The notes under the pieces were generated by a model that saw nothing but the letters and a program-made list of their open reading frames with translations, did no database searches and had not been told where the DNA came from. DNA of 8,048 bases from a virus (lineage: Duplodnaviria > Heunggongvirae > Uroviricota > Caudoviricetes), in IMG/VR virus record IMGVR_UViG_2802429244_000008, positions 1 to 8,048 of that record; one strand, 5' to 3'. Shown here in pieces: positions 542-8,048 of this stretch. Every line of letters begins with the position of its first letter. Position 1 is the first letter of the stretch. The position numbers were made by a program, and so were the translations under genes.

Positions 542-1609
542 CTAATCGATTTTTTCAGATGTAACATGCCTGTACGCTGCCAGTTTTTTATCAGCGTACT
601 GGACGACATCTTTGATGACGAGTTTCTGCATGACTGAAATAAGGTTATGCATATAACAAAAGTCGGGTAACTTGTTTTTTACTGGCAACCAGATAACATC
701 ATTTTTGATTTTTTTATTGCTAACACTATTACCCCAAGAGTATTTATGTGAAATAGATTTATAAATACATGTAATTAGCCCCAAATGAGTAAACATTGTT
801 CTACCATCTTCGTTATTAACATAAAGTCGTAAATTATGACTGTCGTTTGAAAAAAAGTCTCTTTCCTGATAAGTTACAACGAATGTCTTACCACCAATAA
901 AAATACAGTTCCCTTTCTCCAAGAGAGAAGAATCATAGGATATATAAGTACTGACAGAGTTATTCTCACGACTGGCACAAAGATAAGGAATATCTCCGCT
1001 GTTTTCTGTGATATCTCTGGACAATATGTTTCTCGTATTGCACACAGAGAATAATTCAGTAACAGGGAAACCTGAAAATTCAACATCCTTAAAGCGCTCC
1101 AGAATAAGATGATCTTTTTCCGTGAGTTGGTAATCGCTCAGTCCGGCAGCAACCAGGTATGTTTCCAGCTCTTCTATGTGGGTCGCTTCCAGCTCTTCTA
1201 TGTACTTTACCATATAATTATATGCAGGAACATTATTAAACGTAGGTATATTTATCTTTACCTTATTGAGAACATTCTCATTAAAAGAGCTACATCCCCA
1301 ACTAAACGTTGAAAAAGATTTTTTCATCGCTGATATAAGAAAAACAGCAATTCGCGAATTTAACTCTCCATGTCTGAGAGAAAAAATCTTTATTTTATCA
1401 CCTGTAAAATATGCGCTTTCCTGATAGAACATGGTCGCAGTATCCTGCCCAAAGCTAATTGTATTACCAGGGTTGAGATATGTTTTATCTTCATCTATAT
1501 ATCCTTTTATGCCGTTATTGTTACTTCCTCTCGCAACATAAGGATAGTTGCCATTAAATGTTAATTTATTGGCATTAAATTTCTTTTTAGGTGTCTGAAT
1601 ACTGAACAA
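542..1609 (-). CDS. Restriction-modification specificity subunit (HsdS/BcgIB-like, two target-recognition domains), 355 aa
   Basis: Size and layout fit an S subunit: two AT-rich variable halves separated by a central helical segment (YIEELEATHIEELETYL), with a more GC-rich conserved C-terminal tail. It sits directly downstream of the nuclease-methyltransferase gene. The start is TTG at 1609 with a weak, poorly spaced SD; there is no in-frame ATG nearby. Stop is TAG at 542-544. Confidence 0.65.
   Translation of the reverse strand: MFSIQTPKKKFNANKLTFNGNYPYVARGSNNNGIKGYIDEDKTYLNPGNTISFGQDTATMFYQESAYFTGDKIKIFSLRHGELNSRIAVFLISAMKKSFSTFSWGCSSFNENVLNKVKINIPTFNNVPAYNYMVKYIEELEATHIEELETYLVAAGLSDYQLTEKDHLILERFKDVEFSGFPVTELFSVCNTRNILSRDITENSGDIPYLCASRENNSVSTYISYDSSLLEKGNCIFIGGKTFVVTYQERDFFSNDSHNLRLYVNNEDGRTMFTHLGLITCIYKSISHKYSWGNSVSNKKIKNDVIWLPVKNKLPDFCYMHNLISVMQKLVIKDVVQYADKKLAAYRHVTSEKID
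1163..1203 (-). repeat. Imperfect 24-bp tandem duplication in the central spacer of the S subunit
   Basis: ttccagctcttctatgt occurs at 1163-1179 and again at 1187-1203 (17/17 identical, 24-bp period). It encodes IEELEATH / IEELETYL between the two target-recognition domains. Confidence 0.85.
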
Positions 1610-1683
1610 TCTTCCGATTGTATATTCTTCCCATTTACCACCAGATTTAATAAACTCCCGCTCAAGCTCTGCAAGACGGGAGT

Positions 1684-3816
1684 TTACCGCTTTTTTTCTG
1701 ACGCATCACGCCCCTGAAGAAGTTTTGACACTTCCCACGCAAGATAGTCCGCAACGGTCTTTTTAAAATCCTCCAGCGTCGGTCGGGTATCCACGGGCTT
1801 TGTCTGATTCCAGTCGTCCCCCCGGAGTGGATCTATCACATCCTCAAAATATTCATCTTCCGTAAATATACTGAGGCGGCTTCTGCCAAAATGCACCAAA
1901 TCAACAACTTCCTGATAGCGTTCTCTTGCACGATCCACATCCACAAGGTTATTTCGTGCCTTTTTCCGGTTCGTGCGGACATAACCATCATTCGAAAAGT
2001 CGATAAACTTCACCGGATGTTTTGAATTGTGCGGCAGTTTCACCTGGAATACATAAACATATGTCTGGACACTTGATTTACCAATAAACAAATCAGCAGG
2101 CATTTTTATACTGGCCAGTAGCGTATTCTCCTGAAGTATTTTCTGGTTGTATTCCTTCGCCTTACCTGAACCTGCGGACCCCTGAATAATCACCGCGGCA
2201 TACCCCCCTTTCATCATTGAAAGAGCCTTCTGCACGAAGATCATACCATTACCTTTCGCTGAATATGGCGGGTTCAGCACGAATGCAGTAGCCGGAAATT
2301 TCTCTCCCGATTTACCAAAACCATATCTGCCGTCAAAATCGGCCAGTGAGTCTTTGTTCAGGATGTTGGCGCTGCCATCGCCCATCAGGATCATGTTAAG
2401 AATCGCCAGCATGTAAATACTGGATAACACCTCAAGGCCAAGTAGCTGTTCAGCCTTAATTTGCGCCTCTTTCAGTCTGAGCTCATCCGGTGAGTTAATG
2501 TTCTCTCTGGCATCAATAAGCATCTCATTCATTGCAGCCACCAGCAACCCGGCAGAGCCCGTGGCAAAATCCCACACATACGAATCCCGGTTAACTCTGG
2601 CGAGTCTGGCCAGCAATGTAGCCACATAAGGTGGTGTCAGAACAACATCGTTCAGCTTATCCTGAGTAAACCCTAACCAGCGGTACATCTCATTAAACAG
2701 CTTTCCGGTAAAATCGGTCGTCAGTCCGATTTTGTAGTATTCCTCCAGGTCATCAACAACTTTAATAAATACCCGTTTTAACTGACTTTCACCATCGACA
2801 GGTTTATTAATATTTTCAGTCCACAGCGTATTCTGCAGAGTACGAAGGATCATATCCTTTTTGGTTTCCGGGACACCCTTTATCGTAAGAAAATTCTTAA
2901 CTTTTCTGAAAATAATATCGCCATCACGTTCCCCTTCTTCCGTTGAAGATACAAGCTCGCTTTTATCCAATGGGGTAAGTTTTCCGGGAATACCCAGAGT
3001 GGCAATAACCGTGGCTACAACAAGATAAACCCGATCACTTTCGCCAAGCCCCTTTTCATCCTGATAAATATCGTTGTTCAGACGGGAAAGTCGAGTGTCT
3101 ATCTCTTCCTCTTTGCTGGCCTTAATTTTTTCCAGTTCCTCAGGCGGCAGATTAAGGTGCTTTATCTTGTCGATAAATCCGTCAACATTTTTATCCGCAA
3201 GGAACGACAGATCAGTGTATTCACCAACCTTTTGTCCGGCCCCTAAATTATTCTTTGATACATGCCACACGCCAATTTCATGATGAAGTTCTCCTGTATC
3301 ATCATCGCACCAGCCTGTCATACCGATCGCTATAATATCTGAGTAGTTGGTAAACTGGAGAAGTGCGTTGGCATAATGGACTGCGCCATTAACCGCATAT
3401 CCATTAATGTTTTTAAAGTTCCATTCTTTTCTGGAATCTTTATTCTCGATGATACCGTTACTACCAAGCCGGATAAGCCTGTCCTTATAGCCTTTGTATT
3501 CGATAAGAACAGGGTACTGCCTGCCGTATTTGTCCTGAATAAGGAGTTTTACATCGGGACGGTTACCACCTGCGCCGCCATTTTTCGAAAAATAGGCGTC
3601 CAGGGCGTTATCTATCTCGCTGTTAAGTGGTGCCTGCTCCAGCCTGTAATCAAGCCCGTAAGATTTAAGCCATGAGTTCGCGAGGTCGGAAATTTGCGGC
3701 TCAACCGATTTTACCGTCTTTCTGGATTTACTGGTCGCTGGTCGCTGGTCGCTGGTCGCTGGTCGCTGGTCGCTGGTCGCTGGTCGCTGGTCGCTGGTCT
3801 GGCAGCATAGGATCAT
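1684..3816 (-). CDS. Bifunctional restriction endonuclease / N6-adenine DNA methyltransferase (BcgIA-like Type IIB/IIG enzyme), 710 aa
   Basis: C-terminal half carries gamma-class amino-methyltransferase motifs: VLTPPYVATLL, motif I DFATGSAG, motif IV NPPY. N-terminal region has a PD-(D/E)xK-like signature (RPD...VLIEYK). Residues 6-28 are the translated heptanucleotide repeat (TSDQRPA x3). An alternative ATG at 3806-3808 has the better SD (AAGGA, 7-nt spacing) but is out of frame at the present repeat number. Stop is TAA at 1684-1686. Confidence 0.8.
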   Translation of the reverse strand: MILCCQTSDQRPATSDQRPATSDQRPATSKSRKTVKSVEPQISDLANSWLKSYGLDYRLEQAPLNSEIDNALDAYFSKNGGAGGNRPDVKLLIQDKYGRQYPVLIEYKGYKDRLIRLGSNGIIENKDSRKEWNFKNINGYAVNGAVHYANALLQFTNYSDIIAIGMTGWCDDDTGELHHEIGVWHVSKNNLGAGQKVGEYTDLSFLADKNVDGFIDKIKHLNLPPEELEKIKASKEEEIDTRLSRLNNDIYQDEKGLGESDRVYLVVATVIATLGIPGKLTPLDKSELVSSTEEGERDGDIIFRKVKNFLTIKGVPETKKDMILRTLQNTLWTENINKPVDGESQLKRVFIKVVDDLEEYYKIGLTTDFTGKLFNEMYRWLGFTQDKLNDVVLTPPYVATLLARLARVNRDSYVWDFATGSAGLLVAAMNEMLIDARENINSPDELRLKEAQIKAEQLLGLEVLSSIYMLAILNMILMGDGSANILNKDSLADFDGRYGFGKSGEKFPATAFVLNPPYSAKGNGMIFVQKALSMMKGGYAAVIIQGSAGSGKAKEYNQKILQENTLLASIKMPADLFIGKSSVQTYVYVFQVKLPHNSKHPVKFIDFSNDGYVRTNRKKARNNLVDVDRARERYQEVVDLVHFGRSRLSIFTEDEYFEDVIDPLRGDDWNQTKPVDTRPTLEDFKKTVADYLAWEVSKLLQGRDASEKKR
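3731..3799 (-). repeat. Heptanucleotide simple-sequence repeat, 9 perfect copies (TGGTCGC on + strand, GCGACCA on coding strand) plus partial flanking units
   Basis: Perfect units start at 3732, 3739, 3746, 3753, 3760, 3767, 3774, 3781 and 3788 (63 bp), followed by the partial unit tggtc. The tract lies inside the 5-prime coding region of the nuclease-methyltransferase gene. Unit length is not a multiple of 3. Confidence 0.95.
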
Positions 3817-3971: not shown

Positions 3972-4127
3972 TTACTCTCCAGATTCGTAGTCTACGAAAA
4001 CAGCGACCTCCGTCTGGCCGGTTCGGATTCGTACCTCGCAGAGGTCTTTCCTCGTTACCAGTGCCGTCACTATGACGGTTAAACAGATGACGATCAGGGC
4101 GATTAACATCGCCTTTTGCTGCTTCAT
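3972..4127 (-). CDS. hok: Hok/Gef-family type I toxin (51 aa small membrane peptide)
   Basis: Translation MKQQKAMLIALIVICLTVIVTALVTRKDLCEVRIRTGQTEVAVFVDYESGE is, from memory, near-identical to E. coli HokD/RelF and Gef: a single transmembrane helix followed by the conserved RKDLCEV...TEVAVF..YES tail. Confidence 0.85.
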   Translation of the reverse strand: MKQQKAMLIALIVICLTVIVTALVTRKDLCEVRIRTGQTEVAVFVDYESGE

Positions 4128-4184
4128 AGCCTGCTTCTCCTTGCCTTTCGGCACGTAAGAGGCTAACCTGATGTTGTCATGCAT
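3972..4184 (-). CDS. mok: mok-like reading frame, an in-frame N-terminal extension of hok (70 aa)
   Basis: ATG at 4182-4184 is preceded by GAGG with about 6-nt spacing. It extends the hok frame by 19 codons, as recalled for mokC/hokC. Confidence 0.55.
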   Translation of the reverse strand: MHDNIRLASYVPKGKEKQAMKQQKAMLIALIVICLTVIVTALVTRKDLCEVRIRTGQTEVAVFVDYESGE

Positions 4185-4245
4185 AGGGAGCCTCAGATTA
4201 ATGTTAAGCGTCTTGCCGGACGCATAATGTTAACTGGGGCTTTTC
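4176..4245 (+). ncRNA. sok: Candidate Sok-like antisense RNA; boundaries approximate
   Basis: On the + strand, TTGCCT (4141-4146), 17-bp spacer, TAACCT (4164-4169) would start a transcript near 4176 that is antisense to the mok start codon and SD. A GC hairpin GCGTC-ttgccg-GACGC lies at 4218-4233. No clean terminator was identified. Confidence 0.3.
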
Positions 4246-4301
4246 TCTATCTGCCTTTTGGTGTTCATGCCTGAGACAGATAGCCTCAAGCACCCGCAAC
4301 A

Positions 4302-4329
4302 ATTCTACAAAAAATCATCTCAATTTCAA
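4302..4329 (-). promoter_or_regulatory. Candidate sigma70 promoter just downstream of Q (hok mRNA promoter and/or a pR-prime-like late promoter)
   Basis: On the minus strand: TTGAAA (4324-4329), 16-bp spacer, TAGAAT (4302-4307). It begins 3 nt after the Q stop codon. Confidence 0.35.
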
Positions 4330-4331
4330 TT

Positions 4332-4742
4332 TTACTGTATTTCTGCAACCGGCCTTCCAGATGAGCCGCGCCCAACATATCTGTCCATTTCCAGTCTGAT
4401 ATCAAGCATCATCAACATCCCATCAACTATCCCTTCAGCCTTTTGCAACAAACGACCAACCCAGCAATCCGAACGACCATGCTTTCGTGCCAGTGCCATG
4501 AACGTCATTCCTCTTACGTAATAATCCACCAGCAAATCATGCAAATCACTGTTATTCTTTTTCAGGCGAGCCATGCATCCACAAATGATCATCGCATCAT
4601 CATCACAACATTGCGGACGTGATTTAACCTTCGAAGGAATAAGCCCCTTGAATCCAGCAGCAATGGATGACCATGTAACATCCTCGTGGTTATTTGCCAC
4701 CCACGCCCCCCAACGCTCAAGAACCATCTGAATATCACGCAT
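4332..4742 (-). CDS. Lambdoid late-gene antiterminator Q (QuuD-like family), 136 aa
   Basis: N-terminal sequence [73 protein letters not shown] matches my recollection of E. coli cryptic-prophage Q homologues. It sits between the replication genes and the cargo region, the canonical Q position. Its ATG overlaps the stop of the upstream ORF (TGATG). Confidence 0.8.
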
Positions 4743-7272: not shown

Positions 7273-8048
7273 TCAGAATGTCAATTTGTTACTGGATTTA
7301 CCGAATTTGTCAGACATGGCTCCCAGGCCAGCCAGGACATCGACCTGTCGCTGTCGCCCACCTCCGTGAGCGGCTGGCTGTTGCCAGGTATCATCAAAAT
7401 GACGATCGGGGCCAAAGAACGTCGCTGCCTGCTTCACGAACTGTGTGCCGGTATTTCCTGTAGCACGTACCCAGGCGGCATACCGCTTCACGCCATCAAG
7501 CATGCTCTCCGGTTTTATTCCCTCCCTGATACGTGCTTTCCAGGCTTTGAAGGCTGCTGACTTGGAATTGCCACCAGCACGTTTGGGATATTCCTGCCAT
7601 GCCTGTTCAAATTCCGGTGAATATTCCAGTCGGGCAGAACGCGCTGGTGCAGACGCGTCAGCGGATGCGCCAATAGTTGATTCATTGACTGGTTCTTTGA
7701 CTGGTTCAAAAGAGTGACTGGTTCTGGGTGAATCTCCTGCACTACCCCCTGGTGCAACTCTTACACCACCTGGTGAATTTGCTGCACTAGGTAGTGAATT
7801 ATTTGCACTACCACCTGGTGAATCTTTTGCACCATCAAGACGAAGAAGATAAATATTGCTCGAGTTCCCTTTTTCACCTTTCCGGGAAACTTTTTTTACC
7901 AGTCCGGATTCACAAAGAGCCGTAATATGATTCATCACAGAACGTTTGCTAATCTCGCACTGATCAGCAATATGCTGATAGCTGGGCCAGCACTCGCCCT
8001 GATCGCTGGCATTATCAGCCAGCTTAATCAGAACCAGTTTTCGCAACG
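7273..8048 (-). CDS. Phage replication initiator / replisome organiser (lambda O-like), 5-prime partial
   Basis: N-terminal HTH region (ADNASDQGECWPSYQHIADQCEISKRSVMNHITALCESGLV), a low-complexity Pro/Gly/Ser linker that contains the DNA iterons, and a C-terminal domain. The reading frame runs to the window edge, so the true start is probably outside. Stop is TGA at 7273-7275. Confidence 0.75.
   Translation of the reverse strand, partial: LRKLVLIKLADNASDQGECWPSYQHIADQCEISKRSVMNHITALCESGLVKKVSRKGEKGNSSNIYLLRLDGAKDSPGGSANNSLPSAANSPGGVRVAPGGSAGDSPRTSHSFEPVKEPVNESTIGASADASAPARSARLEYSPEFEQAWQEYPKRAGGNSKSAAFKAWKARIREGIKPESMLDGVKRYAAWVRATGNTGTQFVKQAATFFGPDRHFDDTWQQPAAHGGGRQRQVDVLAGLGAMSDKFGKSSNKLTF
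7686..7823. repeat. Iteron-like direct repeats inside the O-like gene (candidate phage replication origin)
   Basis: Set A: TGACTGGTTC three times (7686, 7698, 7715). Set B: four copies of roughly TGCACTACCNCCTGGTGAAT at about 22-bp spacing (7738-7757, 7764-7778, 7783-7799, 7804-7823), with internal dyad CACC.GGTG. Confidence 0.5.

Follow-up and report, generated by a model that had tools for sequence, protein, structure and literature searches.

To our knowledge, switching of the gap in a bipartite target by repeats in a central helix has been documented for the Type IC restriction-modification (RM) enzymes only. In this family, EcoR124I, which recognises GAA N6 RTCG, carries two TAEL units in the central conserved region 1 (CR1) of its specificity subunit (S), and EcoR124II, which recognises the N7 version of this target, carries three (PMC3874165). 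A second point of reference is BsaXI, in which each RM subunit docks on one target-recognition domain (TRD) of S and the RM subunits make no contact with one another (PMC11997821), so that the geometry of S sets their spacing. Here we analyse the first 8,048 nucleotides (nt) of the virus record IMGVR_UViG_2802429244_000008 (Caudoviricetes; this whole stretch is the window of the text below), which carries an RM gene and an S gene, and describe a 24-nt tandem repeat in the CR1 of this S. Natural alleles differ in the number of repeat units, and by analogy with EcoR124 the repeat appears to act like a Type IC gap switch.

Results

Copy number of the CR1 repeat

The repeat of the window consists of two imperfect 24-nt units containing TTCCAGCTCTTCTATGT, a 17-nt exact direct repeat found at 1163-1179 and 1187-1203 with 100% identity and a period of 24 nt (Table 1). 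With the exception of the 7-nt array described below, it is the longest near-tandem repeat of the window. No 17-nt near-tandem repeat arose in any of 200 first-order Markov random sequences, whose longest such repeats averaged 9.6 nt with a maximum of 13, and a chance origin was rejected on the strength of this control. Tandem Repeats Finder, run at a minimum score of 30, did not list the 24-nt repeat because two imperfect copies score below that value. A first-pass annotation, made from the letters of the window, had claimed a 24-bp tandem duplication encoding IEELEATH and IEELETYL in the central helical stretch separating the TRDs of S, and every part of this description was borne out: the open reading frame (ORF) holds two Pfam Methylase_S stretches (E value 1.7e-30), and in an AlphaFold2 model built on an alignment of 60 sequences (predicted local distance difference test, pLDDT, 90.1; predicted template modelling score, pTM, 0.73) the repeat occupies residues 166-181, within a helix predicted at 159-183.

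The same annotation had proposed that homologous S genes be aligned to count the 24-bp copies; when this was done, one, two, three or four units were found with the same TRDs, and the possibility of a fixed structural duplication, always present as two divergent copies, was rejected by this allele series. The annotation was also right that whole 8-residue units are gained and lost, since natural alleles differ essentially by unit number, and that the repeat is a second variable element of the module, the other being the 7-nt array at 3731-3799. Among the top 120 homologues, 46 have an IEELE-type unit, present once in 8, twice in 21, three times in 12 and four times in 5. The protein P0008, with one unit, and that of E. 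coli JNEC-KY171, with two, are identical at 362 of 367 residues and differ by five substitutions and one 8-residue gap, while E. coli strain 48 has three units, near-identical TRDs to those of JNEC-KY171 and, as its extra unit, a perfect 24-nt copy. Grouping of the homologues on TRD identity gave series that differ in copy number alone: two, three and four units occur in an E. coli series with the TRD1 NNEIDWFFMDNY, in a second E. coli series on 100% identical flanks, and in Salmonella, where P0019 and P0021 have two, P0024 three and P0017 four, again with 100% identical flanks. The RM-S system is present in 30 of 5426 complete E. coli genomes. One allele has two units in 18 genomes and is exactly 24 nt longer in SCU-104 and JNEC-KY173, being otherwise the same over 548 nt; E2855 (two units) and SCU-104 (three) have 100% identical flanking DNA and one RM protein accession in common, and 2013C-3033 also has two. 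Prophage loci from IMG/VR likewise carry two, three and four units, and their internal units are identical in DNA, which indicates recent duplication. The two units have 17 of 24 nt in common in the window and 19 in the E. coli consensus; in longer arrays, the internal units agree at all 24.

The variation extends beyond the enterobacteria. When the stretch running from where TRD1 ends to the linker is measured in 60 diverse homologues, it comes to 30, 38, 46 or 54 residues (2, 48, 7 and 2 sequences, respectively), the one exception being P0061, in which a separate GLADSRTR repeat adds length after CR1; CR1 therefore varies in 8-residue steps only. Separate lineages have extra units of different sequence: IADLEAER in P0022 of Microcystis (versus P0020), SAELEARR in P0075 and P0115 (versus P0087) and IRELEEER in P0120 (versus P0058). 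From these sequences we conclude that changes in unit number arose independently in several lineages; two units is the commonest state and probably the ancestral one too. As a separate observation, another E. coli S allele contains, in the linker directly after CR1, a second 8-residue repeat of variable number (GLADSRTR, one to four copies), and P0061, P0063, P0064, P0102, P0108, P0109 and P0073 are 100% identical except for the copy numbers of IEELEAAH and GLADSRTR.

Stability of the repeat compared with the 7-nt array

The other variable element is hypervariable. The 7-nt array, which codes TSDQRPA, is found in related loci with 8 to 119 copies, reaching about 800 nt in locus L001 and about 600 nt in L002, and occurs also in L004-L012; its length changes should turn the reading frame of RM on or off and supply a variable tail at the N-terminus. 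In this array the Prokaryotic Genome Annotation Pipeline (PGAP) calls spurious ORFs on the opposite strand ('hypothetical protein', 'YXWGXW repeat-containing protein') and cuts RM to 569-653 residues. The 24-nt repeat is much more stable than its neighbour: two units are present in every one of 18 E. coli genomes whose flanks are 100% identical, and also in all of L004-L011, even though their 7-nt arrays span 8 to 66 copies. It therefore varies between strains and not within clones. A hypermutable, phase-variable repeat, for which copy number would differ among near-identical isolates, was rejected as a description of the 24-nt unit, which does not behave in this way.

A proposed ruler for the target gap

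How could the number of units matter to the enzyme? We propose that slipped-strand mispairing or unequal crossing-over between units would add or remove whole 24-nt units, each changing CR1 by 8 residues, equivalent to about 2.2 turns, with a rise of about 12 Å and a shift in helical phase of about 80 degrees. A longer or shorter CR1 would shift and rotate TRD2 with respect to TRD1, and this displacement would alter the count of unspecified base pairs (bp) between the half-sites of the bipartite target, so that a new methylation and cleavage specificity could arise with both TRDs unchanged. We put the probability that unit number changes target specificity through the gap length at about 0.6. 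As in the Type IC switch, the tandem repeat is in frame and lies within the CR1 helix, and there are natural alleles that differ in unit number only. Modelling of the helical spacer, another check that the first-pass annotation had suggested, gave a lengthening: the predicted CR1 helix has 25 residues (159-183) with two units and 41 continuous residues (156-196) with the four of Salmonella P0017, whose AlphaFold2 model (pLDDT 90.2) has a CR2 helix at 359-396, of 38 residues as in the S of the window. The scaling of EcoR124, at 4 residues per bp, predicts that one unit would add 2 bp to the gap, and helix rise predicts about 3.5 bp.

Several points weigh against this proposal. No recognition motif was found for any member at any copy number, and the searched literature holds no methylome paper on the system; the methylome paper on O111 Shiga toxin-producing E. 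coli deals with a different Type IIG enzyme and not with the RM-S system of the window. Homodimers of the TRD1-CR1 half of BsaXI with CR1 deletions of up to 32 residues still recognise AC N5 GT, with impaired cleavage (PMC9159934), and the CR1 of BsaXI has a hinge and samples two conformations (PMC11997821), so that a change in length might be absorbed. Eight residues correspond to no whole number of bp in both rise and twist. CR2 stays constant while CR1 changes, which creates a problem of register in the coiled coil, one that stands for EcoR124 too (PMC3874165). The two units of the window have diverged, with 17 of 24 nt in common, and slippage should therefore be rarer there. Finally, expression of S hangs on a candidate frameshift or a weak start codon (see below).

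Alternative explanations

One alternative is that the length polymorphism is neutral and tolerated, the hinge or linker absorbing the change so that the same site is recognised at any copy number. The spacer is unchanged by the CR1 deletions of BsaXI (PMC9159934) and its CR1 is hinged (PMC11997821); moreover, two units are found in 48 of the 60 homologues, as would be expected if the other states were mildly deleterious or drifting, and the pTM falls from 0.73 to 0.61 in the four-copy model. However, the BsaXI experiment used truncated homodimers of impaired activity, and in Type IC enzymes specificity does change by repeat variation of this kind (PMC3874165). Nor does neutrality sit well with changes that come in whole 8-residue steps only and recur in unrelated lineages, or with the three-copy cluster representatives, which are found on many contigs (107 and 69) and are not rare accidents. 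We regard a neutral polymorphism as rather unlikely. The CR1 deletions reduce the endonuclease activity of BsaXI while its specificity is kept (PMC9159934), and copy number could by extension tune activity rather than specificity, through the balance between methylation and cleavage, the cleavage distance or an on/off state; but there is no direct evidence for this in the RM-S family, an on/off switch is already supplied by the 7-nt array, and we judge such tuning to be highly improbable.

A different kind of explanation would make the repeat-bearing CR1 mainly a patch of homology for the swapping of TRD1 and TRD2, with copy-number change as a side effect of exchange out of register. In megablast, homology with other E. 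coli alleles does stop exactly at the repeat (query 664-704), matches that share TRD1 starting at 655-664 and those that share TRD2 ending at 702-718; some alleles have only a 60-nt core of CR1 in common, and one TRD1 is paired with two different TRD2s. Since these breakpoints lie at the repeat (window 1154-1217), CR1 is also a junction of TRD shuffling, as in the Type IC enzymes. A function in spacing is nevertheless compatible with such exchange, and Type IC enzymes do both (PMC3874165), whereas many of the variants with 100% identical flanks differ in copy number alone and need no TRD exchange. That the repeat serves mainly for swapping is therefore an account to which we give little credence, and gap-length switching is the reading that we carry forward.

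The enzyme and its genomic setting

RM adjoins S upstream on the same strand. It matches PADLOC REase_MTase_IIG over residues 35-701 of 710 (E value 8e-227) and Pfam N6_Mtase (1.4e-18), with a weak VRR_NUC match at residues 59-115, and its translation has an NPPY motif and an N-terminal PD...ExK-like motif, RPDVKLLIQDKYGRQYPVLIEYK (RPD...IEYK). No gene for the motor subunit HsdR was found among the ORFs of the 8-kb window or beside the pair in annotated relatives. A nuclease and an N6-adenine methyltransferase are therefore fused in one polypeptide and accompanied by a separate S with two TRDs and two conserved helices; with no HsdR, these features make the pair, as judged from its sequence, a BcgI/BsaXI-like Type IIB restriction-modification system and not a Type I system. 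The first-pass annotation had invoked Type I systems by analogy only. An orphan Type I methyltransferase (M plus S) was rejected, the ORF of RM continuing through the 7-nt array and having a nuclease domain; this initial reading arose because PGAP annotates a 569-residue 'HsdM'.

S matches the PADLOC model Specificity_II ('Type II specificity subunit', E value 1.2e-22), and NCBIfam has no model for it. The AlphaFold2 layout comprises an N-terminal helix (2-17), TRD1, the CR1 helix, a linker with a short helix, TRD2 and the CR2 helix (346-383). With this model, Foldseek matched the HsdS structure 1YDX (E value 1e-16; template modelling score, TM, 0.61) and further 1YF2, EcoKI S, PacII S, BsaXI S (8w0p_C) and EcoR124I S (7bst_A); phmmer searches of RM and S against solved structures found nothing. 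The exact S protein was recovered from a 3.6-kb Logan contig only. Among named relatives, Escherichia sp. MOD1-EC6158 comes closest (98% identity), and megablast against a phage collection gave one half-length match only.

The remaining genes of the window encode antiterminator Q, Hok/Gef, a DnaB-like helicase, an IstB/DnaC-like loader and a helix-turn-helix replication protein, and there are two tRNA genes (tRNA-Thr and tRNA-Gly). Annotated E. coli relatives have Q/hok on one side of the pair and tRNAs, nanS-p and a holin gene on the other; the pair thus sits in the late-region cargo slot of a lambdoid prophage, an observation that refers to 34-187 and 3972-4742 of the window and to the loci L001, L095 and L096. 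Stx phages carry stx in this slot, downstream of Q/hok and upstream of the tRNAs and nanS-p. The set of tRNAs varies between relatives, being Thr and Gly in the window and Ile-Arg-Arg in E. coli E2855. Elsewhere in the window there are 12-nt tandem repeats of 2.3-2.4 copies, at 7681-7708 in the replication-initiator-like gene and at 4410-4437 in the Q gene; the first of these might represent the iterons of an origin.

A candidate -1 frameshift cassette at the RM/S junction

The S ORF called at 542-1609 (minus strand) belongs to a frame that lies at -1 with respect to RM and is open to 1705, the S part beginning at 1696. Its first ATG, GTG or TTG is the TTG at 1609, within the first strand of TRD1. 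The Pfam domain of S begins 9 codons upstream of this TTG, with a confidently predicted helix further upstream, and a start of S at the annotated TTG or ATT was rejected, both features beginning upstream of either codon. RM ends in GAA AAA AAG CGG TAA, which contains a heptamer of the dnaX type, A_AAA_AAG, and a hairpin follows it (Table 1). At the junction, conservation reaches 97-99% among loci whose identity elsewhere is about 85%. A Shine-Dalgarno-like AGGGG lies at 1711-1715, 14 nt upstream of A_AAA_AAG; a spacing of 14 nt falls in the range that stimulates -1 frameshifting at dnaX.

We compiled the junction from 64 loci, of which 51 are species representatives drawn from many phyla and 13, the window among them, are enterobacterial. 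The cassette was noted at 1649-1696 of the window and at junctions in L004-L093. The heptamer is GGGAAAG in 32, GGGAAAA in 27 and AAAAAAG in 5, and the RM stop directly follows it in 58 of the 59 GGGAAAR loci. The codon before Gly always ends in G, although the residue varies, and Gly is always GGA, which points to a constraint at the nucleotide level. No canonical start lies within 20 codons past the heptamer in 19 of the 51 species representatives and in 13 of the 13 enterobacterial loci. About 6 nt downstream of the heptamer there is a 12-bp stem for which 95.9% of the cells of the compilation are paired, against 35-49% when the partner columns are slid, and 38 cells show double, compensatory changes, a number that none of 500 shuffles reached; the inner 10 bp of the stem are also predicted by RNAalifold. 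The junction thus has the sequence features of a programmed, dnaX-like -1 frameshift, namely an X_XXY_YYZ heptamer, a -1 ORF that often has no start of its own and an RNA structure.

As general explanations of the junction, reinitiation was rejected because the candidate start position is GTA in half of the loci, and transcriptional slippage because most loci have runs of A3-A4 only. Taken together, the sequences imply that in many members at least, S would be made as a trans-frame RM-S fusion alongside free RM. In the window this fusion would have about 1090 residues and roughly 125 kDa, with the junction peptide ...SEKK|AVNSR. For EcoKI, a fusion of M and S made by engineering works when free M is supplied (PMC3510504). 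Rfam has no family at the junction, and the searched literature holds no report of recoding in RM systems or of frameshifting in RM-S genes. PGAP calls these S genes truncated or split. In RefSeq the annotation of S is inconsistent (L095, 3316-4428; L096, 3316-4452; L001, 3431-4540), with a truncated coding sequence (CDS) started at TTG, a CDS started at ATT (older records), or a partial CDS plus a pseudogene fragment; this inconsistency probably reflects the lack of a normal start codon.

Table 1. Coordinates of the RM-S module and its repeats in the window
Feature	Position	Strand	Remarks
7-nt array, CGACCAG on the coding strand, 9.9 copies	3731..3799	-	Codons 6-29 of RM; first variable element of the module
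RM gene, 710 residues	1684..3816	-	Fused PD-(D/E)xK nuclease and N6-adenine methyltransferase (NPPY); PADLOC REase_MTase_IIG, Pfam N6_Mtase
A_AAA_AAG heptamer, candidate -1 site into the S frame	1690..1696	-	Zero frame of RM, one codon ahead of the RM stop
Hairpin just 3' of the heptamer	1649..1688	-	Core stem TAAACTCCCG / CGGGAGTTTA; predicted folding energy -23.4 kcal/mol (z -2.85); sequence also conserved in loci L001 and L002
S reading frame, slippery site to stop codon	542..1696	-	No ATG/GTG/TTG ahead of TTG at 1609, inside TRD1
TRD1 of S	1223..1636	-	Pfam Methylase_S from residue 21; AlphaFold2 strands 21-153; homology to other alleles ends at the repeat
CR1, central helix of S holding the repeat	1148..1222	-	Residues 159-183 of the 384-residue frame; AlphaFold2 model, mean pLDDT 90.1
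24-nt unit 1 of the CR1 repeat	1178..1201	-	ATAGAAGAGCTGGAAGCGACCCAC, codes IEELEATH; exact 17-nt copy at 1187-1203
24-nt unit 2 (terminal)	1154..1177	-	ATAGAAGAGCTGGAAACATACCTG, codes IEELETYL; exact 17-nt copy at 1163-1179
Linker, short helix and TRD2 of S	662..1147	-	Pfam, AlphaFold2; TRD2-only megablast matches stop at query 702-718 (window 1201-1217)
CR2, C-terminal helix of S, 38 residues	548..661	-	AlphaFold2 helix 346-383; length constant whatever the CR1 copy number

Discussion

If gap-length switching is true, a prophage enzyme could change its target by a single slippage event while its DNA-reading domains remain untouched, shifting which phages and plasmids are restricted and which sites of the host are methylated, and enzyme engineers would be provided with a natural ruler of spacer length. 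The allele series exist in nature, with one to four units in near-identical E. coli backgrounds and two to four on 100% identical flanks in Salmonella, and they bear on how, in the coiled coil of S, one helix can become longer or shorter while the other stays as it is, a question left by EcoR124. The frameshift cassette, for its part, would explain why annotation pipelines split or truncate the S genes and, if confirmed, would be a case of recoding in an RM system, which the searched literature does not describe.

The repeat alone is of less interest than the whole module, which joins the 7-nt array and the CR1 ruler to TRD exchange and a frameshift-coupled S. As a tentative synthesis, which we regard as less likely than not, the 8-residue helical module may be a quantised ruler of the target gap across a widespread family of Type IIB-like RM systems, in which S would normally be made only as a -1 frameshift extension of RM, the efficiency of frameshifting setting the (RM)2S stoichiometry. 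In the prophages of E. coli and Salmonella, the combination of these two features with the hypervariable 7-nt array would let one module vary at three levels: on/off state, length of the gap and exchange of TRDs.

No description of the 24-nt repeat, or of Type IIB systems in E. coli prophages, was found in the searched literature, and comparison with the known systems shows both likenesses and differences: (i) as in EcoR124I and EcoR124II (and EcoDXXI and EcoPrrI), a short in-frame tandem repeat lies within CR1 between the TRDs, alleles differ by unit number, CR1 alone changes while CR2 stays constant, and the changes are presumed to come from unequal crossing-over (PMC3874165). In contrast to EcoR124, with its unit of 12 nt or 4 residues (TAEL), the unit of the window has 24 nt or 8 residues (IEELEAxH) and ranges from one to four copies, the enzyme is a motor-less RM plus S pair and not an HsdR/M/S complex, and the effect on the gap, demonstrated for EcoR124, is proposed here by analogy. 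With no HsdR, a fused RM and the unit IEELEAxH, the system is not a member of the Type IC family. (ii) With BcgI and BsaXI it shares the fused nuclease-methyltransferase and an S of TRD1-CR1-TRD2-CR2 architecture, for which Foldseek matched the S of BsaXI (8w0p_C). It differs from them in being carried in the late region of a prophage; the searched papers on both enzymes mention no variable CR1 repeat, 5' heptanucleotide array or frameshift site, and the solved structures are too dissimilar for phmmer. (iii) The phase-variable Type I hsdS and hsdM genes also have repeats in or by the coiled coil of S that have been proposed to alter TRD spacing (Atack et al. 2020, PMC7383803); but the tracts described there are short and hypermutable, whereas the 24-nt unit of this prophage-borne module is stable.

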